Part shown: in pieces, positions 32,920 to 57,596 of the stretch
Numbering within the stretch: position 1 is the stretch's first letter
How the letters are laid out: every line of letters starts with the position of its first letter
Assembly: GCA_010015805.1 (NCBI GenBank)
Contig: ML978121.1
Coordinates: 3,596,001-3,660,000 of the forward strand
Reading direction: 5' to 3'
Source: Rhizodiscina lignyota
Lineage: Eukaryota
DNA: 64,000 nucleotides
The notes under the pieces: model-generated
What the model saw: the letters and a program-made list of their open reading frames with translations, nothing else
What the model was told of the DNA's origin: nothing
The model's database searches: none
Made by a program: the position numbers and the translations under genes

Positions 32920-35602
32920 ATGCCCGCTTCCATGAGCGTGCTGCCCGCCTCCTCGGCCGCGACGTCGAGCAGCAAGCACAAGTCTGCAGTCGCGCCGGAG
33001 AAGAAGTACAAGTGTCAGTTCTGCAATCGCGCCTTCAGCAGGAGCGAGCATCGGAGTCGACACGAGAGGTCGCGTAAGTGATTTCCACTCGTGCATATGC
33101 CCCTCATTGCGCTCGACAAAAAGGTGGCGGGTCGCTTTGGTGTCGCGCACGCGCGAGAGCGGGGAAGCAGCACACGCACCAAACACACTGCTAACCATCG
33201 ACTATCGTCACAGACACGAAAGAACGCCCCTTCAAGTGCCAGAAATGTCGCAGCACCTTCGTGCGCCGCGACCTGTTGCTGCGACACGACCGTACCGTGC
33301 ACGCCAAAGACAATACCGGCCCCCCTTTGCAGAGCGAGCCGAAGCGAAAGGCATCGAAAGCGAGTGCGGAGAATGGAAGTCCATCCAAAGCAAATGCAGG
33401 ACTGGATACTGCAGCGCTGGAACAGATAGAGGCGACGAGCGATGGCATGGTGGACATTGAGACTGCTGCAATGTTGCTGACCGACTACCACCAGAAAGCG
33501 ATGGCCAGCCAGGAGCCGGAGCCGATGCCAGACGCGCCAGATGTGTCCATGGTAAACAGTGGCCCAGCTCTGCTCGAGCCGTCTTATCCTCCAGGCGCAG
33601 TTGCTCTCCCTCAGATGCCCGGCTGGGACCACATGCACCCAGTGCAAGACGGAAAATCGCATTCCATCTCCTCTGCCTCAGGACTATCAGACTCCCACCC
33701 CGCATTCAAACCTGCCAGCACTCTACAACCTCATCCAAACACACTTCCTCCGCTGATGGAACGACAGACGTCAAACCCAGATGGCCTGGTGCCTTCGTTT
33801 CCGTCAATGAATGGAGGAGCGGCAATGTCAATGTCAATGTCAGATATGGGAACACCTGGTGCGCTATCGCCCTATCCATCAATGATGGGACCTGTTTCGC
33901 CTGTTGACTATCGACGGTCACCAGGTCCTTCGCAAGCCTTGACTATGACGCGAGCGCCTGTCATTCGCTCGGAGGAGCAGGTTGAGATGATCGAGAGGAA
34001 CATCAAGGAGTCAGACAGCGGTGGTGCCGTCAACTCATTTGTTCTACCCAGCATAGCTGTCTTGAACCGGTACCTGGCGACATACTTCAACCTCTTCCAT
34101 CACCACCTTCCATTTCTCCATCCTGCTTCTTTCGACCCGACTACGGCAGCTGCTCCACTCCTGCTTGCCGTTCTCTCGATTGGTGCGCTATACACTTTCG
34201 AGCAGGACCAGGCATACATGCTACACATCTCCTCGAAGATACTCGTCAACCAATTTCTCCAGAACAAGGAGAACTTCAGCTCGCGTAAATGCCCGCTGTG
34301 GACGATGCAGAGCACTCTGCTGAACATGATCTTTGCCAGCTGGAGTGGCGATCCAAAGGGCCTTGAGTGGGCATGCTCAATTAAGAGTCTGCTTGCGAAC
34401 ATGGTTGCTGGAAACCGCTATGAGCTGAAGCTGCGCTCGGAAGCTCGAGAGGATGCACAGCCAAGCCACGAGGAATGGATCGAGGACGAGGGCTGTCGAC
34501 GAACTTACTATGCTGTCTACATATTCTTTGGACTCTTGACTCTTACGTATAACCATACCCCGGCAATCTCATTCAATGAGCTCGATTCTTTGGAACTCCC
34601 GTCGTCCGAATCACTCTGGACACTAGAAGCTTCAGACGAGGAGTCCTGGAGGGAATCATTGACCGCTTCGACTATCATTTCATTTAAGGAAGCTCACGAT
34701 ACTCTGTTCCAAGGTGAAACCGCACGATACTCGGCCTTTGCAACCCGTGTCATGATAAACGCTCTGTTCCTCGAAGTCTGGTACCATAAGCGGTCTCCCG
34801 AGGCTCTCCAGGATGTTGTCACAGAATACAAGATGCGTCTGGCCCTTGAAAATTGGGAGAAAAGCCTTCAACATTGCGAGCCGGAGACTGTTGTCGTGCA
34901 ACTGTCTGCGCCTCACAAGGGACACCCCCTCATCTTCAATGCCATGGCAATGTACCGAAACACACGCGCACGTTTGATGGTAGATCTCAAATCCATCCAA
35001 GAGGCACTGCGGTATCATGACAGCTACGAGGTTGCGGCTTCTATGACAAATGCACGGGACAAGGTGCAGCGCTCCGAAGAAATGATCAAGGTCATCCAAG
35101 AGTGCTTCAATTGCATCGAAGTCGCAGCTGTCCAAGGCATTCGATGGGTTGCGAGAACATCGGCAACAAATTGGAGCGTTGAGCACCCTCTTTGTGGTAT
35201 GGATCTCATGGTCATCCTGACATTGTGGCTGTATCGCCTGGAACATGACGAGGAGCCCGCGACACAGGACGAGCTAGCAATGTACAACAAACTGCGCAAT
35301 CTCTTTGACGATGACAGCGCAGGCGTATATGGCTCGAAGCTCTCGTCAACTGTAGCGAGGCTGTGGGGTAGCATGATTGATGAGGTCGTAGTTTGGGGGT
35401 AAGTCCTCTCGCACCAACCTAGATCCATGTGAAAGCTAACATGTGATTGCACAGAATAACCAAACTCATGGGCGAAGCGTTCAAGCTCCACTCGCAAGCA
35501 CTTGTCGGATACGAAGACGCCATGTCAGATCACTCTGGCTCGCCAACCCCTTCGTTGACTGCCCAGCATGTCCAAGCACTGGAGATGCAAGCCGCATACT
35601 AG
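32920..35602 (+). CDS. C2H2 zinc-finger transcription factor with fungal-specific TF domain (Adr1/Klf1-like class)
   Basis: Exons 32920-33073, 33214-35398 and 35455-35602. Two fingers CQFCNRAFSRSEHRSRHERSH-TKERPF-CQKCRSTFVRRDLLLRHDRTVH; YFNLFHHHLPFLHP and WIEDEGCRRT motifs. Confidence 0.93.
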
Positions 35603-37435: not shown

Positions 37436-39991
37436 GTTGCTGGTGCACCGCCTGGTGTTTTGGACTGGCGGTGGTTGTTGAAGGTGAAGAAGCTTGTGGG
37501 CCGTAGGAGATGATTTTATAGCCCTTCGGCAAAAGTGCGGCAATGACGGAACAGGTGTTGCGATGACGGAACGGGTGTTGCAAAAGGTGAAGTGTTTGGA
37601 TTGCGAAGTCGCTGCCCATTGACCCTCTCACGGTGAAGCTTCACTCGCCTGATGCACAAACGAACAGAACCCACAAGGCTCCAGCGACTATTCGAAAGTG
37701 ATGCGCAAAGGCCGCAGACCGGAGGAAATGCTCGTCTCCGGCGTGAGCGAAACCATAGATTCCAAACAGTTTGAAATGAGGTTAAGTCTGCTCAACTTGT
37801 GGCAGTGTACACAATTGCCACAGCCTGTGTGAAATAGAGGCTGTCTAGCTGGAAATTAACGCCCTGAAGGAAGTAACGAGAGTCACAGATACTATTGCAC
37901 CCCGTACGAGTGAATGGCTAGACTGTAGCGGGTTACAGATGGAGTTGAGGCTGTTCGAGTCGCTGCAGCCACCGCAACAAATTGCGAAATGCCCGGAGCA
38001 ACAGTGAGAACAGAATAGCATCCATCGTTCTCTTTGCAGTCGAAGATAACTCTTGTAGGCTAATTCTGGTCTATCTTCTTCTCACCTGAGGTCCAGAAGA
38101 TTCCCGCAGCAGGCTCCATGGCGCTAAAAAAGGGAGACGATGCCTTCAGCCACAGGCCAAGGGAATTAGGCGCGTTGAGTCCAGACTAACCACTATTGCA
38201 TGCGGATATACGTGAATTCAAATGAATTCAATTAACCGCTTCAATTGGATCAGAACGCTGCCCAACGGCTTGTCGCATTCCATGGTAGTTTCAATGTTGT
38301 ATTTATCGCCGGGTGGGCTGCAATATCACCCAGGCATCCGTGTATCGCTTCTTTGCCGCCTTTGGCTCCCGAAAGTCTTCGGTAGAGGTGGATTCTCGTA
38401 CTTTGTCGTTTGACTGCATTTCGATCTCGCGTCGATGTCCAGGACGATTCTGCTACTCTTACTGATCCGTGGAAAGATCGCTCAAGAACTGTGCAAGTCC
38501 TCCCAGCGCCAAAGATCTAACGAATCACCACCACTGTGCCCGGTGCATTTAGAGAAGCTTGTACATAAGACAAGATCGGAAGGGGACAGGGTATGTGCGA
38601 ACGAAATTAGGGAAAATCTTTGCCAACTTACATCTCTACGGCGGCAGGCAGGTGGATCAATAACTGCGTCACCCTGCCTATCGTTGATTGCGCCATGGAG
38701 CGGTCGCCGAAAAGCAGCTCAAGATGGCTTTATACAAGCCTTTGGGCGGTAAGGTTGTCTTGTCGTGTCGAAGTCTTGCAATCTACAGTGCGCGACGTTG
38801 AGTACACACCCAACAGGTATCTACGGAGTTGCCGAGTATGTAGCGCGAAGGATCTCGAGTCAGATCTTAGTAACTTCTAACCTACGTATTTAGTGGGACA
38901 ACTCGGCCACCGAACTCCACCGAGAATCTCATCCGCGATTATCTCATGCCCGAGCTGGGCCAAAACTCAGGGGAAACCAGACTGTCGGATCTACTCATGT
39001 ACTTTGCTGCATGCAACTGTAAGCATTTACATCATGCGTAGTGTAGGGTCGAATAGGCTAGCCGCTAGAGGTCCGTTCCGCGATTCCGCGGACCAAGATC
39101 GGATATATCACAGGATATATCGATGGCCCCTTCGAAATGTGCAACAAATCATGGTTAGGAGGAGCCACGATCTTCAGGTAGCCTATTGACAACGCTTTTC
39201 ATAGAGGCGCGGAAGACAATCCTCGATTTTCTATGTCTCCCATGTTGTGGAGCTTCGGTCGAGCCTCGGTTTCCCTGAGCTGCTTTCGAATTACTGCTGA
39301 ACTCGAGGCAGGAGTTACCTTCTTCGGAAGCATATGCTTACTGCTCTGTGCTCGTTGTACTTGATTAATTCGGACAATATAACTTGATGTTCGCGAGTCG
39401 TAACATTGAACCCGAGCGCACTGACGCAACTGTTGAGCGATTTGCATGGACGAAATCGCCCAAAATAGAGCCGCTTTTGTCTTGATCACCAGCTCACGCG
39501 TAGGGCACGTTCACCGATGTCGACTTCGCCGATGACCGGCAGTGTACGGTACGTCTCGTTCGAGAGAATCACGACGCAGGTCGGGATGCGATCGAAGGGA
39601 GAGTCGAAATTAGCTCAAGGTGCCGATCGCGCTAATGTATATGAGGAAATAATTCCGGAGAATCAGATAAGATGGAGAATTCCATTCGAAATATATGCCG
39701 TGTACAGCAGTAAGTTCAGACAAGGCTGACAATTAGTACATTAATTCCTTTCGAGTGGTAAAATGCCTCGCGAAAGTCTTAACACCGTGCATGCAAAGCT
39801 GCAGATGGCACACCAGCCCGTCAGCGGAATTGAACTGGGGCACAGGGGGTATTTCCCGAAATCCACTTTGAGAAATTAACAAAGCAGAGTAATCAATTAC
39901 TTCGAGTACAATAAATGGAAGATGCCTACAGAATTTCCAGTCAGCATTCCCAGGCAAAACAATCAGCAGCCTCAGGATCTCTCTCGCAGCA

Positions 39992-41641
39992 ATGGGAGTT
40001 CAAAATTTCCCCAGAAGACTGCTTTTGTCTGTCTCGACAATAGTCGCTCTTCTGGCAAACCAATGCCTTGCCACTCCTCAAGCCGATGTATCCGACCTCC
40101 CAGCTCATCTCGAAGCCTTGAGACCGAAATATCTTCCAGATTTCCGGAACCTGGCCGAACAAATTTATAACCACCCGGAGATAGGCCGATCAGAGTTCTT
40201 CGCGCATAACATTACCATGGAATACTTCCAAAAAGAACATCCTGGCCTTTGGGAGGTAACGCCCAGTATCCTGAAGACTCTGCCGACGGCATGGAAGCTA
40301 GAATATTCCCACAGACCTTCCGACTGGCCGGAAGATAAGCCGCTGCCGATTGTGGGTTTTATGTCCGAGATGGACGCCTTGGAGGGTATTGGACATTCTT
40401 GCGGTCACCATCTCATCCACATGCAGGGTCTGTATGCAGCCAGTCTAGCCCGTCAGGCCCTGATCGACTATAATATCGCCGGTCGTCTTGTTCACGTCGG
40501 CACACCCGACGAAGAGGAAGCTTGTGGAAAGCATGATCTTGCTGTGGCCGGCGTCTTCGAGGAAAGCCAAGTCTGGCTGATGTGCCATCCCACAATCAGT
40601 TCGGACATTCAGCCTATGTAAGAATCAATGCAACTCGCTTATTTAGGGATATGCTAACCGTAAGACGCGAGCAGGTCATGGAGAGATAACATCATTGTCC
40701 GGGTCATCGAAAAGACGCACTTCGAAGCAGTGAAAGCCGTATACAACATGCTGGTGCCGATCAGAAACCTGATAGGAAAGCTGCCTGGCACGAACTCGAC
40801 CGCGAGCATTGTTGAAGATGTTGGGATGTTCGTCTGTAACGTCGTCGAAGCCGACATTGCTCTCGGAGTCGTTGGACCGGATATCGCTACGGTGAATGAC
40901 ACCATTAACGCTATTAAGTCTTCCAATGCTGGATACGTTACCACAAACTTCACCGTCGCGAAGAACGCTAAAATTGAAGGAGGTATTGATATTATGTTCC
41001 ACGGAAATGCCGGCCATACTGCTTCGAACAACCTTGGTGCTCTGGATATGTCTGTCGATGCTTTCCAGGCACTAAATGCGTCGGATCCCAGTTTCGAATT
41101 CTACATGCCTGATAACACCACTTCAAGCGAACTCGATTTCACCGTTGATTGTCGTACTCGATGGACCGATGAGGGCCGTGACGTTATAAATGCCGTACTT
41201 CCGTTCATCACGACGAAGAATTACGTTCTCGATGTGGAATATCCTGCGCTCGAAATTGACCCGTATCTGGGCCAGTTATTCGTCGATACCATCGCACTTC
41301 CAGAGTATGGAAAGCAGATCTGGCCCATCACCCCTCTTGCGCCCGCTGCTACTGATGCAGGCTGGGTCCAACAAGCCATCGTGAACAGCGACCACACGGT
41401 AAAGGGCTTCGGCAAAGCCGTGGTTCACGCAAACTACAACATCTGCCCGAGCAACCAGACCATCTGCCCTTTCAACCATGAGCCTTTGTTCAGACCATTG
41501 GCCGGGCTGGACTTTGCCTATCAGGAGACAGAGAAGGTTGCTCGAGCTCTTGCGCAAATAGCTGTCGAGTTGCTCAACGATCCAGAGAAGATGGCTGTTG
41601 CCACGAAGGACATCATTGCCGGTCCGAAGAAGAGGGTTTGA
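39992..41641 (+). CDS. Peptidase M20D-type amidohydrolase (PM20D2/ACY1L2-like) with predicted signal peptide
   Basis: Exons 39992-40617 and 40675-41641. IYNHPEIGRSE, SEMDALEGIGHSCGHH, GTPDEEE, MCHP, ATDAG, NHEPLF; hydrophobic N-terminus. Confidence 0.85.
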
Positions 41642-42827: not shown

Positions 42828-44041
42828 TTACTGCGCGTCATTTAATCGGCCTGGCGTTATGATAAGCCTCTTTGCACTGATTTTTCCGTCCCGAAGAAGA
42901 TTCCATGCCTCAGGGACCTTCGACAAACCTCCTAACACTTCCAAAGGCAGAGTCTTCAATCTCCCGTCCGAGAACGCGGCTTCAAAATAATCCCACCACA
43001 CCCACTCCGTGAACTCTTTGTACTTGGGATCGAGGAAGTCAAGCAGATACTGAATAAAAACTCCAGTCACACCTTCAGGGAGTTGCACCCCTGCTCGCAC
43101 GCCCATGGTGGTTAAGAATCGGCCTCCGCCTTGTGCAGCCAAGATCCGGCCAATCTTGACCTGATCCTCCGCTGAGTCCGCTGCAGCATAAACGGCTTTG
43201 AAAGGACCAAGAGCCTCAAGATCCTGCACAACGGTTGCAGAGAAACGATCTACGAAATGCGATACAGCAAGCGTCTTGGCTAGCTCGGCATGGCGTGCGG
43301 AAGCAACTCCCACTACAGTGTATCCCGCTTCCTGCGCTAGTTGGGCAGAGGTCGCACCGATGGAGGATGAGAGACCCCAGATGAGAACCTTCTCTTTCCT
43401 TTTGATCGAATGCGACTTGCCAGAAGGTCGTTCAAGATCCAAATAATGAAAGAGCGCGCGCATCGACGTGTACGCTGTAGAAAGCGCCGCCCCGTCTTCG
43501 AAAGGAGTGTTGCCGATCTGTATCATGCAGTGTCAGCCACGGACTCATAGGCTTGCGAAAGCCATGGATGATACACACTTTCGAAGTTAACTCTTGCGGA
43601 ACAAGGGAGAATCGTTGGTAAGCACCGAAGCGATGGTCATCTCGCAAGACCCCGGTCGCGATGGCCGCAATTCGATCACCCGGTGCGAATCGACTCACTC
43701 CAGTTCCTACCTTCTCCACCACGCCGGAAAGCGCGGCTAGACACAAGTGCGCTGAGCATTAATGTATCGTGATAGGGAATGCTACACTTACTTCCAATGA
43801 TTGTCGGATAGGTCAGTTTGAGGGGAATGATACCAGCCAGAAGCTTCCATTCCCCGGGTTGGGTAGCGACTGCCCTGAAATTCTTTCAGCCATGGAGAGA
43901 GTACAATTGAAGAAGCATGCACATGAGAAAACCTTACTTCACTTGAATGAGGAGCTGACCTTCTCCCGGCTCTGGAACGGCTGCTGGCCCGAGTCGTGAC
44001 TCCTTGCCAACACCGTCAACCCAGAGCGCCTTGTTTTCCAT
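42828..44041 (-). CDS. MDR-family NAD(P)H oxidoreductase (zinc-independent, enoyl/quinone reductase-like)
   Basis: Four exons: MENKALW...PEPGEGQLLIQVK-AVATQPGEWK...YPTIIG-TALSGVVEKVGTGVSRFAPGDRI...GAYQRF; Rossmann VLIWGLSSSIG; C-terminal GKISAKRLII. Confidence 0.88.
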
Positions 44042-44332
44042 GACCTGGTGTAGAAAGAAGTAACGAATTTTTCAATCAGTTCATAGACGGTGCACCAAAT
44101 ATTCAATTCAAGTCCGAATCTGCGACACGATGCTAAATTCGTTTATTCGAATCGACGAGATTGTGAACCCAGCGCCAAATATATAAAATCGACGTTCGGA
44201 TCTTCGGTACACAACCATAACGAGTACTGGTACGAGTAATTGCGCTGCATTATAAATCAAGCGTTAAACCTCACCGTATACTCTGTGAAGACGGATCCGG
44301 GTATATGTGGCACGCGATTGATTTGTAATAAA

Positions 44333-46356
44333 TCATGCAGGTACATCCGCGCTTTTCTTGTCCTCCACATGTACAACAGAGCTTCCTTGTTTCTCGGCTT
44401 GAATCACTTTCATGTCAGCTGCGTGCTGTTGCAATTCAGCTGTTGCGGCGGAGGCGTTCCCAAGCCTGCCAGTGTCGAATATGAGCGACACCTCCTCAAT
44501 CGTCAGGCCTCTCGTCTCGGGGAAGAAGAATACGACAAGAGCGAGGTACATGCACAGAAGCGCAATATAGACGATGTAGCTGGACAACGCAGTCAGCATC
44601 GACAGTCCCGAGTAGCGGTTGTTGGGCATATGAGTGGCCAGTCATACTATTTCCAAGTGATGCTCTTTAGTGCAACAGGATTGACCCATTGATTGAAGGC
44701 TTGCGCAACGCTCTGGACACTCAGAAGGATGCCCAAGCCTTTCAAGCGCATATGGTACGGGAGGATCTCTGCGCCGTACGAAAATGGGAGCGGGGTCCAT
44801 CCGAAGTCGTAGAAACCATAGAAGATGAAGAGCATGGGTATCACAGCGATGCCAGTGGCATGTTTCTTGTGCTCAGCGAAGCTCCCCTGATCACTGGTCA
44901 GCATTGATCTCAAGCGGTATCGGGTCAGGCATCTGCACTGAGAGTCCGGTTATGACGATGTACGAGGCGAGCATTCCAATAGTCGAGATCAGCCATAACT
45001 TCCGTCGTCCAAGCCTTTCGGCATTTAAGGAGCCGGCATATGCGAGAATGAGGTTCCACACAGCCAATCCACCATTGATGCCAGCTGATTAATCGTAAGC
45101 TAACATTCCAGTAGCCAACCATTGAATCCACTATACATACATATCTGGGCGGGATTCGTTATGCCGATGAGGTTCAGGACTGCGATAGTCAGCAATAATA
45201 CAGTGGCTCAAGTGTTTACGAATACAGTACCGGGTGTCAAATAGTACGAGATAATCCCATTTCCGCTCCCTACTCATTTTGAATGTATTAGTAGAGCTCG
45301 AAGAGAGGCAAACCTCAAGGTGTGGCTCCAGCTGCGGATTACTGGCAGATATACAACAGGCCAACTCACAATTAGTTCCAGTTGCCATAGTCAACAGTAC
45401 AAGAAGACGCCGCCGATTCGGAGCTGTTTTCACGAAATCGATCCAACGAGTCTTCTTGTTCATCTCTTCGAGTTCGATGATTGCGCAGATCTCCTGGTAT
45501 TCATACTGAACAAGTTCGTCGTTCTGATCTCCATTTGCATGATATTTTGCGAGAATAGACAGGGCCTTATCGGTTTTCCCGTGATGTACAAGCCACTATA
45601 AAGTTGTCAGCCCGTTATCGAAGGACATCGGAGACCGTTGAACACACGCGAGGGGATTCCGGAATGACGGCGAGAAATAGTAGGACGACGATGGGCGCCG
45701 TTATCTGGAATAAACATGGGGCTCTCCATGCCCAGTCATCTGTATCTCCCCAGTGCAGAGATCCGTAGCAGAACCACGCTGCTACTATGGAACCGACGTA
45801 GTAATTACAGTAGAAAGATGACGCTAGGATAGCTCTCAGTCGCGGATGAGCGATTTCTTGAAGCAGTGCAACTGCAGTAATCTTGCCGAATGGACCAGCA
45901 GCACCAATCAGACAGCGGCCGGCAATAAACATGCCTGCGTTCCTCGCAAAGGCATTTACAAAGGCGCCCGCAATAAGAACGACGGAACCAACTGCGAGAG
46001 AGGCTTTCCGGCCCCATTGATCGTTGATGGCGGAAGAAATGTACGGCGTCACAATCGCAGGTAGAAACAAACTGGCCGAGATGAGGCCAAGATAACTGCT
46101 GTCCGGGTCGTTGAAATATGCTTTCCATTGAGGCATTGCTTGCAGCCCGTTCAAGAGAGATGCATCGTACCCCAAGTAGAAGACTGCAAAGTATAGGCCA
46201 ATGCAGTGTAAGACATTTTGACGAAGGCCTGGGTCTTTGAGCCACCACTTGGCGGTATTGTCTTGACGAATTTTAGCATTTCCACGTCTTCTATTCCAGA
46301 AAGATGCACGCACTTTGATATCGAGCAAAGCTCATTTGATTGCTATCCCCAGCCAT
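44333..46356 (-). CDS. MFS sugar porter (lactose permease / cellodextrin-transporter-like clade)
   Basis: Eight exons splice in frame: WWLKDPGLR, GYDASLLNGLQ, DQWGRK, LQEIAHPRLR, PESPR|WL, WSGNGIISYYL, YGAEILPY, PETRGLTIEE. Confidence 0.92.
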
Positions 46357-46846
46357 GGTGCGAAAACAAAATAAATTGTGGGGAAGTGTTGATAGTGCAG
46401 CTGCGAGTGAAGGGTGTCGTGGAAAGGTGGATTATGATGTGGCACTGAGCATCTTCAATGGCTTTGGCAGTCCATCGGCCATATTTCCGAGCTCGGAATG
46501 ATTTGGGCTCTGAAGATGTCGTCCAGGGAAAGCAAATTTGACGGAGTTGGAAATTGTCGAATTTTTCTTCCCTCTACAGTGATCGTTGATTGCAAGGCAT
46601 AGGGATTTTCCATGGGCCGCTGCGAACCCGGCTTTGGAATGCTGGGGCGAGAGGCGGGGATTCCGAACCAGCTCGGTATTTCGGAAATGATGCCGAACAA
46701 GTCAATCATGATGGTAGAAGTTGGGATAGAAGGGTAAGTAACTGTCGAACGTATCGAAATCAGCATTAGAGGTTGACAAAGATAAAGGGAGCCTGATTGT
46801 CGAATTTCTTCATTTGAAGCCGAACCTGATAATCGATATCATCATC
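46357..46846. promoter_or_regulatory. Bidirectional promoter (transporter/dioxygenase) with candidate Zn2Cys6 and CreA sites
   Basis: Perfect palindrome TTCCGAGCTCGGAA at 46485-46498; TTCCG 46661, CGGTA 46674, CGGAA 46682; SYGGRG at 46378, 46642 and 46654. Confidence 0.55.
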
Positions 46847-48050
46847 ATGTCTACCGCAACGCAGACCACAACCTCAGAAGGGACTATTCCAATCAAGCCG
46901 ACGCCAGTATGGGTGCCGTTTACAGTTGAAGGGGAAGTTCCTCCGCCGTACAGAACTCCTAAGTTCGGCCTCAAGGTCATTCCCCTCCACCCGACATTTG
47001 CTTGTGAGCTGGAGGGAGTTGATTGGAGCAAGCCGGTGCCACAGGAGGTGTATGAAGAGATCAGAGACCTCTGCGACAAAGTAGGTCTGAGGATACAGCC
47101 ATACCCGTTCCAGATACTAACAACTTCGAATAAGTACGGCGTTGTAGTCTGCAGAAATACCGGACTCTCAGATAAAGCACACGTCGAATTTTCCCAATAC
47201 TTTGGTGATTTGGACGACGTTGGTCCATATCAACAAGCAGGTCGCACTCATCGTCTGCCATACTTGGAGCTTTTCGATGCAGGAAATATCGATCCAGCTA
47301 CTGGAGATGTGGCGCCTTTAACAGCAGCGCAGGTCATCGGCAACAAGGTAGCCTCCTGAACGGTTTGCTGCTGTACGAAGTGCTGACAGTCCGAAGGCAA
47401 ATGAGCAATTTCATGTCGACTCCTCGTTCAACGGACGAAGAGCAGGCCACTCGTTGCTGCTTGCCCATATACTTCCGCCGGCAGACATGGGGGGCGCAAC
47501 GGAAGTCCGTAAACGGTCCCAATGAAAGTAGTGCGAAGCTAATGTTGTTCAACAGTTCTCAGATTCCAGAACTGCATACGGGGATCTCTCAGCGGAGAAG
47601 AAGAAACAGATAGAGAACCTTGTGGCCAACCACTCGCTCTTCCATTCACGAAAAAAGGCAGTGCCGCACTATTTCAAAGATCTTGATCCCCGAGACCATC
47701 CGTTCAGCAAACACAAGCTCGTGCAGCGGCATGAATGGAGCGATCGTATGAACCTTTACATCGCATCATATTGCCATAGTATTGATGGTATGTCAGATGA
47801 GGAGGGCACGGCTTTGATTGAAGAATTGCTTTGGCATGTTTCGCAACCGAAATATCGCTACACGGTTCCTTGGAAGCAAGAGAAAGACCTGATAATCTGG
47901 GATAACACATCTGTTATGCATAGAGCAACGGGAGGAACGTATGAAGGAAAATTTAGAAGAGATATGAGACGAACAACGGTGAAGGACATGAGTACTCAAC
48001 GGTTTGGGCTGAACGGTGACGGCGCTGACTGGCGTGTTGGCATGCCTTAG
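46847..48050 (+). CDS. Fe(II)/2-oxoglutarate-dependent dioxygenase, TauD/TfdA family (TfdA-like)
   Basis: Introns 47081-47134, 47348-47396 and about 47506-47554. PLHPTFACELEGVD, facial triad NEQFHVDSSF (HxD) plus WDNTSVMHR, GGATEFSDSRTAY, RDMRRTT. Confidence 0.92.
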
Positions 48051-48579
48051 GCAGGCTGTATCCTACGTAGCTTTAGAATTACACTGTTCTCGAGGGAAGG
48101 TAGATGTGGATATGAGCTCTAAGCTTTGTACAGTGTTTCTTAACCTGCTTGCGAAGTGTTTTCGGGGACAGTAAGGGACTTACTTTGAACGCCCCTTGGC
48201 AACAGAAGCAGTGTAAGAACTCATAGGAGAAAATTGAGGGACCTTGCAGTGTACTCTCGTCAGGGATAAAGAGACTTTTATTTACCCTGAACCATTCCAT
48301 AGCAATGAGTTGGAAGGCGGCGGAAGCCACTTCAATGCCACCTCCAGTCGTGAGTAGCTTCGTGTATCTCTGAATCCGTGTCGAGAGCGGAATTACTGCC
48401 CATGTAAGACAGCAGCGGGCTACACACGCATCTGCGAGTAGTATGATTTAGCCATTTCTCCCCTTGAGCCGTGATGCGACCCAGAGGGGATTTTTTGTGC
48501 GAGAGATTGATAATGAGCGGAGTTGCTTCGTTCAAGAGGGGATCTCCGAGCTGTGAAATCGCTTCCCGCTTCTACCACC

Positions 48580-50990
48580 ATGTCCACCGAACGCCAGCAA
48601 TCTGCACAACCTACGGAGCAGCCCAGCTCTCCAAATGTGACAAGACGGACGCGAGGTCGATACGTGTCCAAGGCTTGGTAATGCCCATTCCACCCTTGTA
48701 AAGCGGCATCCGTTGTGCTCGAACCTCTACTAACGCTACTTTCCGAGCAGCATCACTTGTCGCCGGAGAAAGCTCAAGGTCGCTTTGCATATCCCTAATC
48801 GTATATCAACCCTAAACTGACGCTGCCTTAGTGCTCTGGTGAAGAGCCATGCAAGCGTTGTGCCCATCATGGTCACCAATGTTTCTATTCCGAAGACAGA
48901 GCTGCGGCCGAAATCCTCCATGGCATACAATCCTTCACGAACGGCTCCCACGCGTACATACCCCGAATCTCGCGACCTGACAGTGAGGGCCGAAGCGATG
49001 GAAGATCGAGATGGGAGCTGAGGTTGGAGAGAGTCGAGACGATGCTTGAGAAGATTCTTGCGTCCTTAAGACAAGACAGTAGTCTGAGAGCAAGCGCAGA
49101 GCCGGAAGCTGAACAGTCAGGCGCAAATGCAGTTGACTTTCAGGGCGATACAGCCTTCCGAGCCCCCATCAATACCTTCAATGCCAATCTTGCATCTGTT
49201 CGCCTCCAACTAGGCCTTCCGGAGCAGCAGAGCCAACCTCCAAGTCCTGCAACTGTCAATCCGCACGAATCCCCACATCAATCAATCCGAACTCCAACGA
49301 ACTCGCTGTCGAAGATTCGGGTGGGTCTGCGAAGTCTTCCGTTTCCCACACAAGAGGAGTACAGGCGATACATCAAATTCTTCTTTGATGATATAAATCC
49401 ATGTCATCCGTGCGTAAACGAGGCCGACTTTGAAGTGAGGAGCGAGAAGTTACTATCTAGCCTTCATCGGGGTCCAATTGACACCGGCTTCTTGGCCCTC
49501 AATTATATCATCTTTGCCTGCACAGATATCCTTACCAACATTACTCCATCCGAGCAAAGTAATGTTTTGCCTGGCTGGGATTGGTATCTCGCTGCGGACT
49601 CACTGCTTGGAAAGCGGAAGTTTGGTGGACGTGCAAACTTGACCGTCATACAATTCTTGATATTTGAAGTAAGTTTATATATATTTCAATTCTATGACGT
49701 TAGCGATGTACTCACCTTTGCACAGGCGTTCTATCTAGTTCATGCAGATAAAGGTAACGCTGCATATAATGTCATCGGCCTGGCATGTCGGCTGTGCTTT
49801 CAGCTGGGGTTGCACCAGCAATCTCGCTGGGCCCATAACCAAAGTGCCTATTGGCGACACATGAATCAGCGGATTTTTTGGACGGTTTACTTCACCGACC
49901 GGCGAATCTCGCTAAGCTGCGGCCGACCTTATGGCATTCACGACTCTGAGACCGATGTTGAAGAGCCAGAATGGATCAGCGATAGGGTGAGGATATTAAA
50001 TGCAATAGGGGTGTATTTATATGGTATACTGACAGTAGCAGGCACTACATCCCGATCGCCCGTTCCCAGATCCTGATCATGTTGATTCATTCAATATGTA
50101 TCTTTCATGCATGGTAGCATGGGCTAAGCTTGCAGGACAAGTATTCTTCGTAAGCGCATCGAACTCCATCGGAAACGATGAGAATATTGCCATTCTGGAT
50201 GCAAAAATAAGGCACTGGGCGGAAACGATACTTGCGAATATCCCTCTACTGCCGCCGCCTGGTGTAGCAGTGCCAAGCTTGAGACATCTACGCCAACGTT
50301 TGCTCGTAAACACTGTTAGTATTCTGCTTGGCATCTGGAGGTCCTTATTGACGTAGCCCTCAGCGAGTGTCACACCTTCGCCTACTTCTCAGACGCCGTC
50401 TGATGGTATCTCTCACATACGACAGGAGCTGTGGGCAACTCTGTGGAGAACTTGCCATTGACATTGTAAACCAGCTTAAAGAGCACAGCTATGAAATTGT
50501 CGAGCCAAGTTCTTTCAGGTTCCATCTCGCAACGACACTTGGTAGCGCGATTCTGATTCTATCGACCTTGCTTTGCCGACCACTTGCCGATATCGGTCTC
50601 CAGGACCAGCATTTCGCCTACGCAGAGAGTTTTCGTGGAGCCGCTCAAATGCTACAAAATCTTGCAGTCTCTCTCCAGGCGGCAAGACGAATTCAAGATG
50701 ATCTCCGAGATATCACTCACGTCGTCACGTCGCTACTAAATCAAGAGCAAGCCTCGGAGCAAGATCTCATGAGCCTACTGCCGCAAAATATCGACCACCT
50801 GTTCCCGTACGGCGCGATCGATTTTGCCCAGCAATTTTCTCCGTGGCCTCATGAGATTTTCAGTGACAGGGTGGAGATCAATGTTCACACGAGCACCGAT
50901 AGCACTTTTGATCCTGATGCTCTCGGAACCCTTGATCCTTGGGATAATGCTCTCCAATCCAACCATGGATATGGAGTGCCGTGGATTTGA
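48580..50990 (+). CDS. Zn(II)2Cys6 transcription factor with fungal-specific TF domain
   Basis: Spliced YVSKACITCRRRKLKCSGEEPCKRCAHHGHQC; FFDDINPCHP, LGLHQ...RIFWTVYFTDRRISLSCGRP; five introns. Confidence 0.92.
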
Positions 50991-51269
50991 AGGAGCAGTG
51001 GCTTTCATTCAATTGAGTCTCGCGCCCACGGATGACGGGTTTGCTCGGCTCCTAATGACTGCTATGCAACTGTGCAAGCGTTTACATCATGATGCCGAAG
51101 CCATCGCCAAGATACTCATCTGCGCAGGTAGTGATGATGATCATCATCATATTATCAGTCCTGTGCTCTAATGGCTCTGTGCCCCAATTTATCGCACTTG
51201 AGCTTTGTAAGTGACAATTTTCTTTCTAATGCCCAATTTTGCTCATTTAGCTAACTCAACCGTCCCATT

Positions 51270-52594
51270 CTACAGTGAATTCTCTACCTCGTAGATCTTT
51301 TTGAGACCTTCTCTAACGGTTTCAATGACATATTCGCTCGGTGGAGGAAGCGGTTTCCTGAACACGCCTCCCAAATATTCCACGTCCTTGACATCCGGTG
51401 CAACGTGCACGTCGAATGCCGTCTTAATGCCCAAGAATCCCTGTTGCTCCTCAACGGAATTACTCGAGCCATTTGCGAATGTATAAACTTACAACGCGAT
51501 TGATGATCGAGTCGGCTTCGGTGACGAGGTCCTGTAGCTGTTGTGCTTCCCTAAATCTGCTTAGGTTAGCCTCATGCTTATTTGCGCATCTGAGAGACCG
51601 AGAGAATTTACTTCTTCGCATTTCCAGTTTCCAGAGCTTCCACCGATGTTCTGAATAGCTTCATCATTACCTTTGGGTAGATATTAGCAGGCCCGCTCAC
51701 ACATCCGTCCTGCCTTGCCACAAGTGCCGGTAACATGTAATCAGAGCCCCCTGGCAAAACCAAGAACGGGAGCGGATGTCGAGCTCGATACTCTGGCGAC
51801 TTGACATGTAAAGCGACTCGATGACCTTTCGATATACTGTAACAAGTGAGTTTAACTCCTCTGCGCCATCGTTAGTATTTTCATATCGGCGAGAGTTGAC
51901 GTCGCCACAGACGCAATATTTTGATGTTCCCTTTAAAGCTACAGTATCAGATCAGTCCGCGACTTAAGTTCTTTGAGGATCTTACGCGATGTCCATTAGA
52001 AAGTCTGGGTCGAGATCAATACCGCCTGAGGCGAAGGGTATCTGCGGCATCTCAGCGCACCGTCTCCGCGTAGTGTCTATGACTTACATTGTAAAGCAGC
52101 AAGGGAATCGGGCTCCGGTCTGCAAGAGATTCGAAGAAGTTCTTCAGCGCACTCTTGTTTTTGCCATACGCAAAAGCGAAGTACGATGGCGCAACTACGA
52201 CTCTATACAACATCAATTTACGATCAAAGAATCGACCATTTACAGAAGTCACATACGCAGCGTCCGCGCCGGCCTCTGCAGCATCTTGGGCATGCTTCAC
52301 ACACTGTCTGAGGCTCTCTCCATTAATACCTGCAATAATGGGGATTGAATTATCCAGATCCTCCGCCATCAGAACATCCTTCGCAGCCTTGACCAAGAGC
52401 TTCTTCTCCTCCCTCTCGAGTAAATTGCCCTCCCCCAGTGTCCCTGAGAGCACGAGGCCACAATCTGCCTTCGCTAGTCGTGCAATATTTCTCTTGAAGA
52501 TTGGAATGTCGATGTCTTCATTCTGATTGAAGGGAGTGACAACCGGTACGTAGACGCCTTGTCGGAGCTTAGCACTGGAATTTGTGACATCCAT
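51270..52594 (-). CDS. DHDPS/NAL-family class I aldolase (2-keto-3-deoxy sugar acid aldolase, GaaC-like)
   Basis: GVYVPVVTPF, SGTLGE, SPIPLLLYN, GIDLD, Schiff-base lysine in HQNIAGVKLTC (assembled through an 18-nt micro-exon), ANIYPK, RKPLP; six introns. Confidence 0.88.
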
Positions 52595-53041
52595 CGCTCT
52601 GTCTCTCCTCATTTCTGAGGCTTCCGCCTTTCATGGCCCAGTTTGTATTATGCCTATCCTTTCCGACCAAGCGGAATCTGTTCGGTATCCAGTCGCAGTT
52701 CATCCCTGTTCTCCCCACAATCTCCCCGGGTTGGTCAATGCTTCCGAGATTTCCATTTTCAATTGTGCAGTTTCCGCAATTTCCGACATGGATCCGAGGC
52801 TAATGGAGCGCTTTCCTCCTACCTTCATGTGCTTGCAATATTGAAGCATGTCAAGTAGTATCGAGCATAGATCCAATTCGATAAGCATAGGACATTGTAG
52901 TGGTCACGTAGCATCCAAAACTGCTATTCACTTCTTCTTAATTGCAGTTTTTCCAACTCGGACTCTAAATCTCAACACGAAGTCGTTACGGAAGGAGCTA
53001 GTCCAGCACCATTCGATCCATTGCACTATCGCCTTCTAAAA
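52595..53041. promoter_or_regulatory. Bidirectional promoter (aldolase/dehydratase) with clustered TTCCG/CGGAA half-sites
   Basis: TTCCG at 52622, 52661, 52742, 52772 and 52781; CGGAA at 52672 (TTCCG-N6-CGGAA). Reverse-strand SYGGRG at 52713 and 52724. Confidence 0.55.
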
Positions 53042-54535
53042 ATGGGACATCAAGATATCACATTAACCTCCTTCACCGTCCGCGACCTTCGCTGGCCCAC
53101 CTCTCTAGATAACATCGGTTCTGATCCTATGAATCTTGCCGGCGAGAACTCTTATGGCTACCTTCAGTATCACACCAACGTTGGCACCACAGGTACAGGT
53201 TGGAGTTTTGCCAATGGCCAGGGCAACGAGTAAGTGCTGTAATTAACCAGATTTAACTACAGTCAATTGGTCTGACGCTAACAGTCTCGTCAAAGCGTCC
53301 TCTGCACCGCCATCCGCTCTCTCGCGCCCCGTTTCGTCGGCCGCACGCTCTCGTCCATAACTGAGAACATGGGAGCCACACAACGCAAGCTTCAATCGGG
53401 CCAGATCCGCTTTATGTCTCCTGAGCGTGGGGTACTGCAGCTCGCGACATGCGCGGTGCTCAATGCATTGTGGGACTTGTGGGCCAAAGTCGAAGGGAAA
53501 CCGCTCTGGAGACTCGTCGCGGACATGACGCCAGAGGAATTTGTGCGCTGTATCGATTTTCGGTACATGTCGGACGCGTTAACTCCGGAGCAAGCGTTGA
53601 CGATGCTGAAAGAGAAAGAAGGCGGGAAGGCGGAAAGAATAAAGATGGCCAGCGAAGACCGTGCGGTACCGGCGTACAACACGTCTGTTGGCTGGCTGGG
53701 GCACTCGGACGAGAAAGTCAAGGAGCTACTGCGAGAAGCAAAGGCACAGGGTTTCCGACACTTCAAGCTTAAAGGAGGACAGAGCCCAGAAAATGATAGG
53801 AAGAGACTCGGTCTCGTCCGTGAGGTCGTGGGAGATGAGGCAGTACTCATGGTAGATGTGAATCAGCTATGGGACGTAGATGAGGCAATCGAGTATATGA
53901 AGAAGCTTGCGGATTTGAGGCTTTGGTTCATCGAAGAGCCCACGTCGCCGGATGATGTCCTTGGCCATGCGAAGATCAGAAAGGCTTTGAAGCCTCTTGG
54001 AATAGGCGTGGCTACAGGCGAACATGTGAATAATCGCGTTATGTTCAAGCAGCTGTTGCAAGCTGAGGCACTTGATGCCGTGCAACTCGATGCATGCAGG
54101 CTAGCGGGAGTAAACGAGATCCTTGCCGTCTTGTTAATGGCGTCCAAATTCGGAGTACCTGTTGTGCCACACTCGGGGTGAGTGCTTCACATATATCACA
54201 TAACATCAAGAGGATGAGAAGTACTGACGAGATCCAGCGGCGCCGGAATGGTTGAACTCTGCTCCCATATCAGCACCATCGACTTCATCTGCGCCTCCGG
54301 AGAGCAAAGCATTCTTGAATACACCGATCATTTACACGATGCATTCGAGGCACCGGCGAAAATCACTAGTTCGGGTTTCCATGTAACCCCAACAGTGCCC
54401 GGATATTCGTGCGATGTGAAAGAGACCGAGTTTGCGAAATTCGAGTGTCCAAATGGGAGCTTTTGGAAATCAGAACAGGGTCTGAAGATGCTCAACGATC
54501 CATGGAGGGGAGTACCAGGGGAGCAAACATCTTGA
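53042..54535 (+). CDS. Enolase-superfamily (mandelate racemase subgroup) sugar-acid dehydratase, L-galactonate/L-fuconate dehydratase-like
   Basis: DLRWPTSLDNIGSDPMN, LNALWDLWAK, CIDFRY, KxK (FKLKG), metal ligands VDVNQ / FIEEP / ATGEH, QLDACR, VPHSG, LEYTDHLH. Introns 53230-53295 and about 54178-54237. Confidence 0.93.
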
Positions 54536-54981: not shown

Positions 54982-56754
54982 TCACGATGGTCGCTTGAAT
55001 GGATGTGCCTCCGTGTTAAATACGTACTCGTCCAAGCTGATCAAATCCGGCTCACTGAATATCAAGTAAAAGTACTTGAGTGTCTCGGCCAGCCAAAAGC
55101 TTTCCATGCTACCGACTTTGTGCGGATTTTCCTTTACAAGCACGTCCGACAGCGCCGCATTCGCTAGTTCCGTCTCGGTATTCTTCTGGATGGCCGTGAA
55201 CATCTTCCATGCTGTTTCTCGGAAATGTTTCTCCCCTGTAATCCGATAAAGGATAAAGACGCTCTCGATGGCTTCCGGTCGGAGGATGTACCGCTTGTCT
55301 TTTGCCGACGTGAATCCCAGTGGCAGCTTCTCCTTCTGGATAACATTCGTTGCGGATTGCTGTTCGCCTTTGTGGTTCAGATTGCGTTGTGCGACCTCTC
55401 GCATGTAATGGGCTTCGTCCCATTTACAGTCCGTCGTCGAGTGGCATGGTGTCATAGTGAACTTCTCAGGCATAATGCCCAGCGGTGAGTTGTTGTATGC
55501 CCAGATGCAGCCGTCGGTTGCTTTCTTGCCAATCTCGACATGCGCAGGGATATCGAAGAGCCGGCCACCGAGAGCAAACATACCGCCCACGAAACAACCT
55601 AGATGTTGACCCTCCGGATCGAGGTTGATTGACGTAGGAGATGCTACAGCATTTCCGGAGATAAGAATATCGGCATTGTCAGGAAGCATTGGTCGGAAGA
55701 GGATGTGCTGTTTCGCAGCGTGCATGGATTGCTTGTACATTGCATGATAAGTCTGGTCGAGGCCGCCGAGAAGAGCAAAGGTCTTCGGGAGATATTCGTA
55801 CACGGAGTCGGCCATGGCGCTGAGAGTGAATGGTCCATTGGTAGAGAAATTTGCTTCTTTGGCGTTGACTACGATCGGCCACATGCCTGGAAGCAGTGTC
55901 TCCATTTGCTGTGCCGCGAATATCTCCGTGATCCTCTGCACAGCGTCGAACCACTTCATGTCCTTCGTGAGCTGCGACAGCCTAGTGAACTCCATGACCA
56001 ATGAGCCAATTTCTGCAACGAGAGTATTTTCATGGGCCTCTTGCCGAGTTCCAGTAAGCGCTTGCTGAGCGTCCCATCTTGTCAGCGGCATCCTATTCGG
56101 TGTGTCGAAAGCAGCGTAGAGCATTTCTCCGACTTCAATGGCTTTGCGTAATAATCTGACATCCGAACTGAGGTCGTAGGCGGACATGAATCCCCCCAGA
56201 TAGCGAATCGTGGTTTCAAAGACATTGATTTCGCCTGGTGGCGCGTCGAAATCTATGTTGATAGCCGCCGAGACAGCTTCGTCGAATTCAGTCTTCAGAT
56301 CCATAATCCACAGCGTGTCTAAAGAGTCAACGAGTGTTGCAGCCCAACCTCCGAACGTATTCTTTGCTCCGCCGGAGATTGGCTCGAGCTCATCTTGCAT
56401 CCATGCTTTTTCTTTGTATGAAGCCCAGCATTTCTGGAAAACTTGCTTTACTGCGAGCTGCTTCTTCTCTCTCGCCGCCTTCTCGTCAGGTGATTCAGCC
56501 TTAAATTCGTGTTGTACTTTTGGCAGTTGCTTCGGCGCGCCAGTTGGCAGCGTCCGATATGAATCAACTGGAAATTGGATTGGCCGACTTTTCCATCTGG
56601 ATCTGAGTGGAGGAAATCCTCCAGATAAGTATGTCGCAGGGTTGATTGAACGCCAGCTTGCGTATTTCTCGGTCCGCGAAATGGTGAATAGCACGAAAAG
56701 GAGACAGGCCGCGAACAGAAGAGTGGTATACGAGCGCTTGATGTAAATAAACAT
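54982..56754 (-). CDS. GH47 class I alpha-1,2-mannosidase, type II membrane anchor
   Basis: FGGWAATLVDSLDTL, NVFETTIRYLGG, EFTRLSQ, DSVYEYLPK, YILRPEAIES, MESFWLAETLKY, FNTEAHP; N-terminal TM; single exon, 590 aa. Confidence 0.96.
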   Translation of the reverse strand: MFIYIKRSYTTLLFAACLLFVLFTISRTEKYASWRSINPATYLSGGFPPLRSRWKSRPIQFPVDSYRTLPTGAPKQLPKVQHEFKAESPDEKAAREKKQLAVKQVFQKCWASYKEKAWMQDELEPISGGAKNTFGGWAATLVDSLDTLWIMDLKTEFDEAVSAAINIDFDAPPGEINVFETTIRYLGGFMSAYDLSSDVRLLRKAIEVGEMLYAAFDTPNRMPLTRWDAQQALTGTRQEAHENTLVAEIGSLVMEFTRLSQLTKDMKWFDAVQRITEIFAAQQMETLLPGMWPIVVNAKEANFSTNGPFTLSAMADSVYEYLPKTFALLGGLDQTYHAMYKQSMHAAKQHILFRPMLPDNADILISGNAVASPTSINLDPEGQHLGCFVGGMFALGGRLFDIPAHVEIGKKATDGCIWAYNNSPLGIMPEKFTMTPCHSTTDCKWDEAHYMREVAQRNLNHKGEQQSATNVIQKEKLPLGFTSAKDKRYILRPEAIESVFILYRITGEKHFRETAWKMFTAIQKNTETELANAALSDVLVKENPHKVGSMESFWLAETLKYFYLIFSEPDLISLDEYVFNTEAHPFKRPS

Positions 56755-57596
56755 GGTGTGCGGCCCGAATATTCGAGAAGCTTGTTAGCAGTGTCGTCAA
56801 AGCAGCATCATGAACGTTGTGAGCTTCGAGATGTAGCAAACAAAGTGAAAAGTACGCGAAAGTGGAATGTGTAACACTTGCCCTTGTGTGCGGCCTGTGA
56901 CGTCTGTGGTTGCGGCGCAGGGCAGTCTGAGACATCCTTGGCAGGAGCCATTCCTGTAGGCGCGTTAAAGCGTTTCAACAAACCTGTCATCCAGCGAGTG
57001 AAAGGAGACGAAGGGTAAGCAGATGCACTTGTCACCGTCAAACGTTTAAATGGGTAGATAAAAGCGGGCCGAGCCCGGTTTTAAGGTTAGGGGAGCTTGT
57101 TTTGAGGCTTGCATTGGCGTCGTTCCTCGTCAGGGGCCAATTACGTATGTACGCCTTCAAGCTTCCATCGATCTGACTTCGCTGATTGACACTTCTTCAT
57201 CATCGCCTACTCTTTTTCATTTGCTTTAAAAACTGGTGTGCCAAGTGCGATAAGCGTTCGCGCTTTTCCGTACTGCACTATGGACTATGGGTGCTTCTCC
57301 CGTATCGTCTACTCAGTACACAATGTCCTTCCTTGCGGTGGCCCTAGGAACCAATAGTCATCCGCAGCTACAGAGTCTTCACTACTCCATAGCTTGATAA
57401 CCTCCTTCACACGTACATTCAAGACTCTTGTGGTCATGGACCAGTTGAAATCCATTCCTGGGTCGCGTTGTTTGTTGACAAAGCTAGATCGGAATGCAAA
57501 TCGCGCGCGTCGTGTCAGCCTCTAAAACCACATGTCCGCAATCATGGATCAGGGGGGTAGGTCAATCCAGATTTACGATTTCATACGGTTGCAATT

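Follow-up and report, generated by a model that had tools for sequence, protein, structure and literature searches.

A stretch of 64,000 nucleotides of Rhizodiscina lignyota contig ML978121.1 (assembly GCA_010015805.1, positions 3,596,001 to 3,660,000; the window, whose own numbering is used below) contains six contiguous genes at positions 42828-54535. Five of them, encoding a sugar porter, a TfdA-like Fe(II)/2-oxoglutarate dioxygenase, a Zn2Cys6 transcription factor (TF), a DHDPS-family aldolase and an enolase-superfamily dehydratase, are a real conserved cluster. The five genes very probably act as one functional catabolic unit to which the dioxygenase belongs. The chances are about even for a fuller proposal, in which this catabolic cluster has its own regulator and in which unmasking of the substrate by the dioxygenase would be followed by dehydration and then by cleavage.

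Layout and conservation of the cluster

The window was scanned with Pfam on open-frame pieces (exon pieces) between 42.8 and 54.5 kb, and the families matched are ADH_N/ADH_zinc_N, Sugar_tr, TauD, Fungal_trans, DHDPS and MR_MLE_N/C. Gene models were assembled manually, with three-frame views and GT/AG site lists as the guide, and the introns of all six are based on splice signals and homologue alignment. All six models are open throughout, with no internal stops, and the stop codons of the medium-chain dehydrogenase/reductase (MDR) gene and the dehydratase gene set the outer limits at 42828 and 54535, respectively. The genes and their two divergent promoters are as follows (aa, amino acids).

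42828..44041 (44041-43938, 43874-43792, 43736-43579, 43517-42828), minus strand: MDR-superfamily oxidoreductase of the enoyl-reductase type, 344 aa, 4 exons; Pfam, intact model
44333..46356 (46356-46314, 46261-45648, 45595-45370, 45269-45231, 45179-45141, 45084-44939, 44886-44648, 44579-44333), minus strand: sugar-porter family MFS transporter, 530 aa, 8 exons; Pfam Sugar_tr, intact model
46357..46846, no strand: divergent promoter of porter and dioxygenase; one-mismatch CGGAAWTYCCG at 46655-46665, ATTTCCGA half-sites at 46483 and 46681
46847..48050 (46847-47080, 47135-47347, 47397-47504, 47556-48050), plus strand: TfdA-like Fe(II)/2-oxoglutarate dioxygenase, 349 aa, 4 exons; Pfam TauD, equals P0121
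48580..50990 (48580-48677, 48751-48778, 48832-49668, 49726-49986, 50042-50314, 50364-50990), plus strand: Zn2Cys6 transcription factor, 707 aa, 6 exons; six-cysteine pattern, Pfam Fungal_trans
51270..52594 (52594-52257, 52202-52088, 52041-51986, 51930-51913, 51860-51612, 51556-51493, 51440-51270), minus strand: DHDPS/NAL-family class I aldolase, 336 aa, 7 exons; Pfam DHDPS, orthologue alignment
52595..53041, no strand: divergent promoter of aldolase and dehydratase; one-mismatch palindrome at 52775-52785
53042..54535 (53042-53229, 53296-54177, 54238-54535), plus strand: FucD/ENOSF1/Lgd1-family acid-sugar dehydratase of the enolase superfamily, clade A, 455 aa, 3 exons; equals P0001, relatives in the PDB

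The porter and dioxygenase genes lie head to head across a divergent spacer of 490 bp, the aldolase and dehydratase genes lie head to head across one of 447 bp, and the TF gene sits between both pairs. The remaining spacers measure 291, 529 and 279 bp. The six Pfam families, the uninterrupted models and the paired layout therefore confirm what the initial annotation had observed, namely six intact, contiguous genes with short spacers, four of them arranged as two head-to-head pairs around the TF.

A metagenomic scan with the dehydratase returned 80 loci, six of which are 62-75% identical and have intron-like gaps. Loci L025, L026 and L028 represent one organism (L025 and L028 come from two samples), and L018 represents a second. 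When the six window proteins are compared with these contigs by tblastn, five genes are found on L025 and L028 in the window order and on the window strands.

3849-1520, minus strand: porter
4348-5393, plus strand: dioxygenase
6031-8288, plus strand: TF
9628-8344, minus strand: aldolase
10001-11450, plus strand: dehydratase

The porter orthologue on L025 and L028 is collinear with that of the window, at 45-78% identity per exon, as is the L025 orthologue of the TF, at 40-58%. On L026 and L018, too, the aldolase and dehydratase genes form a head-to-head pair. By tblastx, the flanks of L025 and those of the window have nothing in common, so the conserved unit extends from the porter through the dehydratase.

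The MDR gene is probably not a member of this unit: no homologue is found on L025 or L028 by tblastn at 1e-5. Its Pfam matches to ADH_N/ADH_zinc_N are weak, falling below cut-off on single exons, and its best solved relative is the enoyl reductase LovC, again with a weak E value of 3e-5. In the remote searches, where the porter, TF, MDR and aldolase were queried as single exons only, the MDR has 9 representatives among 1.84 billion proteins at E 1e-30. Its named relatives (10 representatives were looked up) are called 'enoyl reductase domain' or 'dehydrogenase azaJ' and belong to Fusarium oxysporum, Oidiodendron, Cadophora and Hypsizygus, fungi that are absent from the cluster lists of the dioxygenase and dehydratase. 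In Cladophialophora chaetospira the nearest MDR relative found, H2200_002911, is 34% identical and lies on a different contig from the cluster genes H2200_002018-21. Because the MDR has no syntenic homologue, resembles LovC and azaJ and has its named near relatives in other fungi, it is most likely a neighbour outside the pathway. The six-gene cluster with an MDR as pathway reductase that the initial annotation had proposed thus reduces to five genes, which do recur together on contigs with unrelated flanks, the dioxygenase among them.

The enoyl-reductase likeness of the MDR bears on another reading, in which the locus is a secondary-metabolite biosynthetic cluster with the MDR and the dioxygenase as tailoring enzymes. 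The LovC and azaJ-named relatives point that way, and TauD-family enzymes do occur in such clusters, the dioxygenase itself having NCBIfam matches to PtlD and ScoE, all of them below cut-off. The window has no synthase or other backbone gene, and the conserved block consists of a sugar porter and sugar-acid enzymes and excludes the MDR, which makes this reading very improbable.

Linkage of the dioxygenase to the dehydratase is also seen in named fungi. The close relatives of the dioxygenase are 26 database entries at 63-77% identity, the next ones reaching at most 55%. For 13 of the 25 named entries, the same species also has a dehydratase of the window's own clade (clade A, described below), and more match by genus. 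In five named species from two phyla, one of them a basidiomycete, the two genes carry locus tags that differ by 1-3.

Exophiala spinifera: 09533 / 09536
Cladophialophora chaetospira: 002018 / 002021
Saxophila tyrrhenica: 006165 / 006163
Recurvomyces mirabilis: 003214 / 003212
Tremella mesenterica: 02381 / 02382, adjacent

In five further species, the dioxygenase and dehydratase entries list an equally long longest contig. The database model P0147 from Neophaeotheca is a fusion with the dioxygenase in its N-terminal part and, in its C-terminal part, the orthologous TF, which is 46% identical to the window TF over 627 aa. For 13 species, the identity matrices of the dioxygenase and the dehydratase are correlated, with a Mantel r of 0.565 that is equalled or exceeded in 2 of 5000 permutations.

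Other public models are fused as well (the set comprises P0147, P0227, P0193 and P0209). Penicillium expansum has a DHDPS aldolase fused to a TF, the aldolase part being 37.5% identical to that of the window. TauD-MFS transporter fusions occur in Cudoniella and Polytolypa, and the Cudoniella transporter is 25% identical to the window porter.

The Eurotiales copies of both enzymes, from Penicillium herquei and Aspergillus lucknowensis, are closest to those of the xylarialean Nemania (84% for the dehydratase and 78% for the dioxygenase) and not to those of the Chaetothyriales, which belong to their own class (P0005, P0008 and P0013; P0136, P0138 and P0122). This shared closeness for both enzymes hints that the cluster has moved between lineages as one unit. 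The five-gene unit, with its own regulator and candidate cis-element, appears to be distributed patchily across Ascomycota and Basidiomycota, as though it had moved whole.

Transporter, regulator and candidate promoter element

Sugar_tr (PF00083) matches four exon pieces of the porter, which cover profile positions 2-196, 197-266, 342-414 and 415-452; positions 267-341 fall on small unscanned exons. This match along the protein places it in the sugar porter family. Its nearest cluster name in the Atlas is 'Maltose permease MAL61 family', which is a lead only, the Atlas look-ups giving family-level names throughout. The spliced translation of the TF gene contains the six-cysteine pattern C-x2-C-x6-C-x5-C-x2-C-x6-C, spread across three exons. 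Together with a Fungal_trans match at E 3.5e-17, this motif assigns the protein to the Zn2Cys6 family.

The two divergent promoters of L025 share a palindrome, CGGAA(N)TTCCG, which occurs exactly twice in the 21.4 kb of this contig, one copy in each promoter. On L018 it occurs once, inside the divergent promoter, and exact copies stand in the aldolase/dehydratase promoters of L025, L026, L028 and L018. Among 75 other loci, the palindrome is found in only one, L042. In the window, one-mismatch forms occur at 5 places in 64 kb, and two of these (46655 and 52775) fall within the divergent promoters, which make up 1.5% of the window. No copy was found in the window upstream of the MDR gene or of the TF gene itself. 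The distribution of the palindrome fits a candidate Zn2Cys6 site that would drive both gene pairs, and the weight of the motif argument is placed on the element as derived from L025 and L018.

Two other elements were set aside. The ATTTCCGA half-site as an element on its own is a post hoc choice, the window promoters sharing 11 8-mers where about 6 would be expected by chance according to our own estimate. CreA-like SYGGRG sites number 3 and 2 in the promoters, which by our estimate is near chance, and they were not used. The CYS3/MetR-type consensus has 2 matches in the window against 1.1 expected, neither of them in a promoter of the cluster.

Given how densely fungal genomes are packed and how many TfdA-like genes they contain, a neighbourhood of unrelated genes might arise by chance. 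Such an explanation is hardly credible here, given that the same order and strands are kept beside unrelated flanks, that the dioxygenase and dehydratase genes are close together in two phyla, and that a rare palindrome is common to the promoters.

Catalytic enzymes

The dehydratase model is identical, letter for letter, to database protein P0001, which like P0121 (the dioxygenase) is named as a protein of R. lignyota, and MR_MLE_C matches it at E 5.5e-50. Its best solved relatives are human ENOSF1 (4a35, E 3.2e-129) and Xanthomonas campestris FucD (2hxt, E 1.8e-121; also 1yey), with residues 8-436 aligned. This near full-length alignment to solved structures places the protein in the FucD/ENOSF1/Lgd1 family. 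The catalytic KxK, Asp, Glu, Glu, Asp and His are all kept, the segments FKLKGG, VDVNQ, IEEP, TGEH, QLDAC and PHSGG aligning with the FucD motifs. By the residue numbers and roles that we take to hold for FucD, the KxK motif provides the base, Asp/Glu/Glu are the metal ligands and Asp and His form a dyad.

Each member of this family is not equally close to the window protein. Among the best 120 of 8000 scored homologues, the first 39 are 71-84% identical and come from scattered asco- and basidiomycetes, whereas those from row 40 onward are 60-66% identical and are mostly named 'L-galactonate dehydratase', from Trichoderma, Fusarium, Botrytis and others. In a FastTree phylogeny of 101 of the 120 sequences (19 outside 400-500 aa were dropped), which is unrooted and has no outgroup, the window dehydratase and 23 others, clade A, lie on one side of a branch with an SH-like support of 96. 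Tremella mesenterica has one copy, P0020, in clade A and a second, P0062, outside it on a long branch. The window protein thus stands outside the clade named L-galactonate dehydratase and does not qualify as a GaaB/Lgd1 orthologue. The initial annotation had allowed that the gene might be simply the gaaB orthologue of this genome, a possibility against which both the separate clade and the two copies in T. mesenterica speak. The 'L-galactonate dehydratase' annotations across clade A are probably wrong.

Clade A differs from the canonical Lgd1/FucD sequences at 35 positions, each at least 85% conserved within its clade (24 versus 76 sequences, with P0062 excluded). The N-terminal part, corresponding to the capping domain, accounts for about half of them, including Y36N, I58N, R60Q, W102F and H111Q. 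Unlike FucD and ENOSF1, in which W102, H111, R60 and I58 are conserved, clade A has F, Q, Q and N at these places. Other changes, A251V, M306H and Q308N, adjoin the metal ligands. According to the accessible part of PMC9795676, the N-terminal domain mainly governs substrate specificity in such enzymes, so it can reasonably be inferred from the clade-specific N-terminal changes that the clade-A dehydratase has an altered substrate.

The cluster might also be a duplicate of the ordinary L-fucose, L-galactonate or D-arabinonate route, in which a plain aldonate is processed and the dioxygenase is a co-inherited accessory or acts on another imported acid. FucD-family enzymes and fungal LGD1/LGA1 are promiscuous towards L-fuconate, L-galactonate and D-arabinonate, and the retention of every FucD catalytic residue in the dehydratase agrees with such a duplicate. 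We consider it rather unlikely, since the dioxygenase is linked to the dehydratase as tightly as the aldolase is (adjacent in T. mesenterica, collinear on L025), the common promoter motif also precedes the dioxygenase, and an altered substrate is indicated by the changes that clade A shows at 35 otherwise conserved positions.

In the aldolase, Pfam DHDPS matches exon 1 at E 1.4e-14, and an in-frame ATG upstream, at 52612, is an alternative start. The database model of this protein, P0224 (322 aa), jumps from ...DFLMDIA to ISKGH... and is 14 residues short, the missing residues including the GVK lysine. P0225 and P0226 have EH(Q/K)NI(A/V)-GVKLTCY at this gap. The window does encode the missing segment if 51930-51913 is read as a micro-exon of 18 nt and splicing uses an earlier acceptor, at 51861. 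With this correction, the 336-aa protein aligns without gaps to P0225 (66%) and P0226 (56%) through EHQNIA-GVKLTC, and by this orthologue alignment it supersedes, as model C, the two other models, A and B. The motifs GT-x-GE (GTLGE) and YN-x-P (YNIP) and the GVK lysine, all of which align with P0225, P0226 and P0228, place the protein in the DHDPS/NAL family (PF00701), where the GVK lysine is presumably the Schiff-base residue. The window aldolase is 36% identical to P0228, another fungal DHDPS-family protein, versus 56-66% to the cluster-type orthologues. Five aldolase relatives are among the matches listed for the single-exon queries.

The dioxygenase model equals database protein P0121 letter for letter. 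Its solved relatives are TfdA (5bke, E 3.6e-36), RdpA (8e-25), TauD (5e-14) and the alkylsulfatase Rv3406 (1e-10). H155-x-D157, H307, R320, R323 and R324 (the last three in the segment RDMRR) are invariant in 32 fungal and metagenomic relatives and align with TfdA. From work on TauD and TfdA we take the His-x-Asp...His residues to be the iron triad and the arginine to bind 2-oxoglutarate. The presence of the triad and the arginines assigns the protein to the TauD/TfdA Fe(II)/2-oxoglutarate family (PF02668), and since they are invariant, the dioxygenase looks like an active enzyme that acts on an anionic substrate. By sequence over its full length it is nearest to the ether-cleaving aryloxyalkanoate dioxygenases TfdA, RdpA and SdpA, the last of which falls in the same group, and it keeps their iron triad and RDMRR arginines. 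Compared with bacterial relatives, the fungal dioxygenases are longer by about 20 residues at the C-terminus, and those of ascomycetes by about 40 at the N-terminus as well. TauD, AtsK and the sulfoquinovose dioxygenase belong to the same Pfam family, and the sulfoquinovose pathway would be a precedent for the unmasking of a sugar by such a dioxygenase during catabolism. The similarity to TauD and to alkylsulfatases is weaker than that to TfdA.

This family membership raises the question of a sulfo-sugar or sugar-sulfate route, in which the dehydratase and aldolase would cut a 6-sulfo or sulfated aldonate, and a TauD-family enzyme would act on the sugar or the C3 fragment to free sulfite or sulfate. 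A bacterial TauD-family sulfoquinovose dioxygenase exists, and the window enzyme falls in the TauD/AtsK/TfdA family. On L025, moreover, a sulfite-oxidase-type molybdoenzyme (Oxidored_molyb and Mo-co_dimer) is encoded at 12088-13140 on the plus strand, 637 bp past the dehydratase, and it is also present on L028. The 64-kb window has no such molybdoenzyme and no sulfur-related gene, and the L025 molybdoenzyme gene is not preceded by the palindrome. In sequence, the dioxygenase stands much nearer to TfdA and RdpA than to TauD or the alkylsulfatases; clade A has lost Arg60 and His111, its sole basic gain being His306; and the cluster promoters are devoid of CYS3-type sites. The gluco configuration of sulfoquinovose would also not suit the stereochemistry of FucD. 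On this balance a sulfo-sugar route is quite unlikely. Beyond the molybdoenzyme gene, L025 carries housekeeping genes for an E2 ubiquitin-conjugating enzyme, a mannosyltransferase and a condensin subunit.

Proposed pathway, known systems and surrounding genes

The catabolic proposal combines the five proteins as follows. The regulator, probably through CGGAA(N)TTCCG in both divergent promoters, would turn on both gene pairs, and the porter would bring in an anionic, O-substituted acid sugar. The dioxygenase would hydroxylate the carbon that bears the O-linked substituent, beside the ether oxygen, so that the substituent leaves as in ether cleavage by TfdA and RdpA. Unmasking would yield an aldonic acid of the L-fuconate/L-galactonate stereochemical series, from which the clade-A dehydratase would take off water to give a 2-keto-3-deoxy acid. 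The aldolase, through a lysine Schiff base, would then cleave this acid to pyruvate and an aldehyde. The last two steps follow known chemistry, in which FucD-type dehydratases convert an aldonate to a 2-keto-3-deoxy acid and DHDPS-type aldolases convert that acid to pyruvate and an aldehyde. The unmasking role of the dioxygenase and this order of steps are put forward tentatively, and we would lean slightly against them. As a best guess, the substrate would be an acid sugar of the L-fuconate/L-galactonate series with an O-linked group, which might be a carboxyalkyl ether or a methyl ether like that of 2-O-methyl-fucose, a constituent of nematode and plant glycans. It is possible, if rather doubtful, that this would be the first eukaryotic sugar-acid pathway to open with an oxidative 'deprotection', in which a TfdA-like enzyme strips an O-linked group from an acid of the L-fuconate/L-galactonate type.

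Several observations weigh against this proposal. Full five-gene synteny comes from one independent metagenomic organism, with locus tags available for two genes elsewhere, and in Meredithblackwellia eburnea and one Elasticomyces strain the dioxygenase and the dehydratase lie on contigs of different sizes. Shared species history alone could give the correlation between the two identity matrices. The palindromes of the window promoters are imperfect, with one mismatch each. As neither a sugar dehydrogenase nor a lactonase is part of the conserved block, the imported compound would already be an acid unless those steps are encoded elsewhere.

The proposed cluster would add to a field in which fungal routes are largely unassigned for the O-methylated, ether-linked and sulfated sugars of plant, algal, bacterial and animal glycans. 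Many fungal TfdA-like dioxygenases have no assigned natural substrate, and the cluster ties one of them to two enzymes of understood chemistry. Its own transporter, regulator and candidate DNA motif provide a testable handle both on sugar routes and on dioxygenase substrates. If the substrate were found, the non-phosphorylative sugar-acid pathways would gain a new entry step, and the clade-A dehydratases a function.

The gaaA-gaaC arrangement belongs to the D-galacturonate pathway, whose enzymes GaaB/Lgd1 and GaaC/Lga1 are the nearest known counterparts in reaction order. That pathway and the L-fucose route of Trichoderma reesei, FDH1-LGD1-LGA1 under FUR1 (described in the accessible part of PMC12370193), resemble the present cluster in that a FucD-family dehydratase precedes a DHDPS-family aldolase that yields pyruvate and an aldehyde. 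They are likewise non-phosphorylative and under the control of a Zn2Cys6 regulator. In contrast to both, the dehydratase and aldolase genes here lie head to head in a cluster that also has a porter, a dioxygenase and a TF of its own, and the window dehydratase is less similar to the 'L-galactonate dehydratase' entries than to members of its own clade. The word dioxygenase occurs 0 times in the T. reesei paper (PMC12370193), and no dioxygenase is among the induced candidates in the accessible part of the Aspergillus niger galactarate paper (PMC5153877). What appears to be new here is a non-phosphorylative sugar-acid module extended by an Fe(II)/2-oxoglutarate dioxygenase that is locked to a porter and a private regulator. 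No published description of such a cluster was found in the literature, nor any paper naming both 'dichlorophenoxyacetate dioxygenase' and 'galactonate dehydratase', subscription-only papers being outside our reach.

Bacterial loci do not reproduce the combination. No relative of the TauD, DHDPS, MDR or porter proteins lies in the available flanks of the other 74 FucD-type loci of the metagenomic scan, which are 49-56% identical and taken as bacterial. Likewise, 80 bacterial TfdA-like loci, mostly from Erythrobacteraceae, have no FucD, DHDPS, MDR or sugar-porter relative. Within these samples, the dehydratase, aldolase and dioxygenase occur together on fungal loci only. The closest bacterial loci encode proteins 38-45% identical to the window dioxygenase, and the likeness to TfdA proper is one of sequence alone, the gene context differing from that of a Sphingomonas relative, which lies beside an aromatic-type FAD hydroxylase.

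Among the bacterial TfdA-like loci (L081-L160), the sulfate-activation genes cysD/cysNC and the dihydroxyacetone kinase genes Dak1/Dak2 are repeatedly found within a few kb (for example at 543-3439 and 13315-14310 of L092), and other recurrent neighbours are valine-type acyl-CoA genes, HAD and MarR. The Sphingomonas locus has the FAD hydroxylase and an AraC regulator instead. We judged this bacterial context uninformative. The genes that recur seem to reflect synteny within the lineage and are others in Sphingomonas.

The outer neighbours of the six genes are a GH47 alpha-mannosidase gene at 54985-56784 on the minus strand (E 1.7e-167) and, at 39893-41641 on the plus strand, an open frame in two pieces, for which Pfam gives no match at 1e-4. 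Neither is conserved beside the cluster on L025, as judged by tblastx. Elsewhere in the window, the region 4001-8000 has a G+C content of 0.61-0.62 compared with about 0.50 in the rest. It includes, at 4111-6954 on the minus strand, a 948-aa open frame with no Pfam match, where many long frames overlap on both strands. Other genes of the window encode a tannase/feruloyl esterase (17028-18470, plus strand), a second sugar porter (26287-27815, minus strand), a second Fungal_trans protein (33195-35399, plus strand) and a DUF3433 protein (12290-14305, plus strand).

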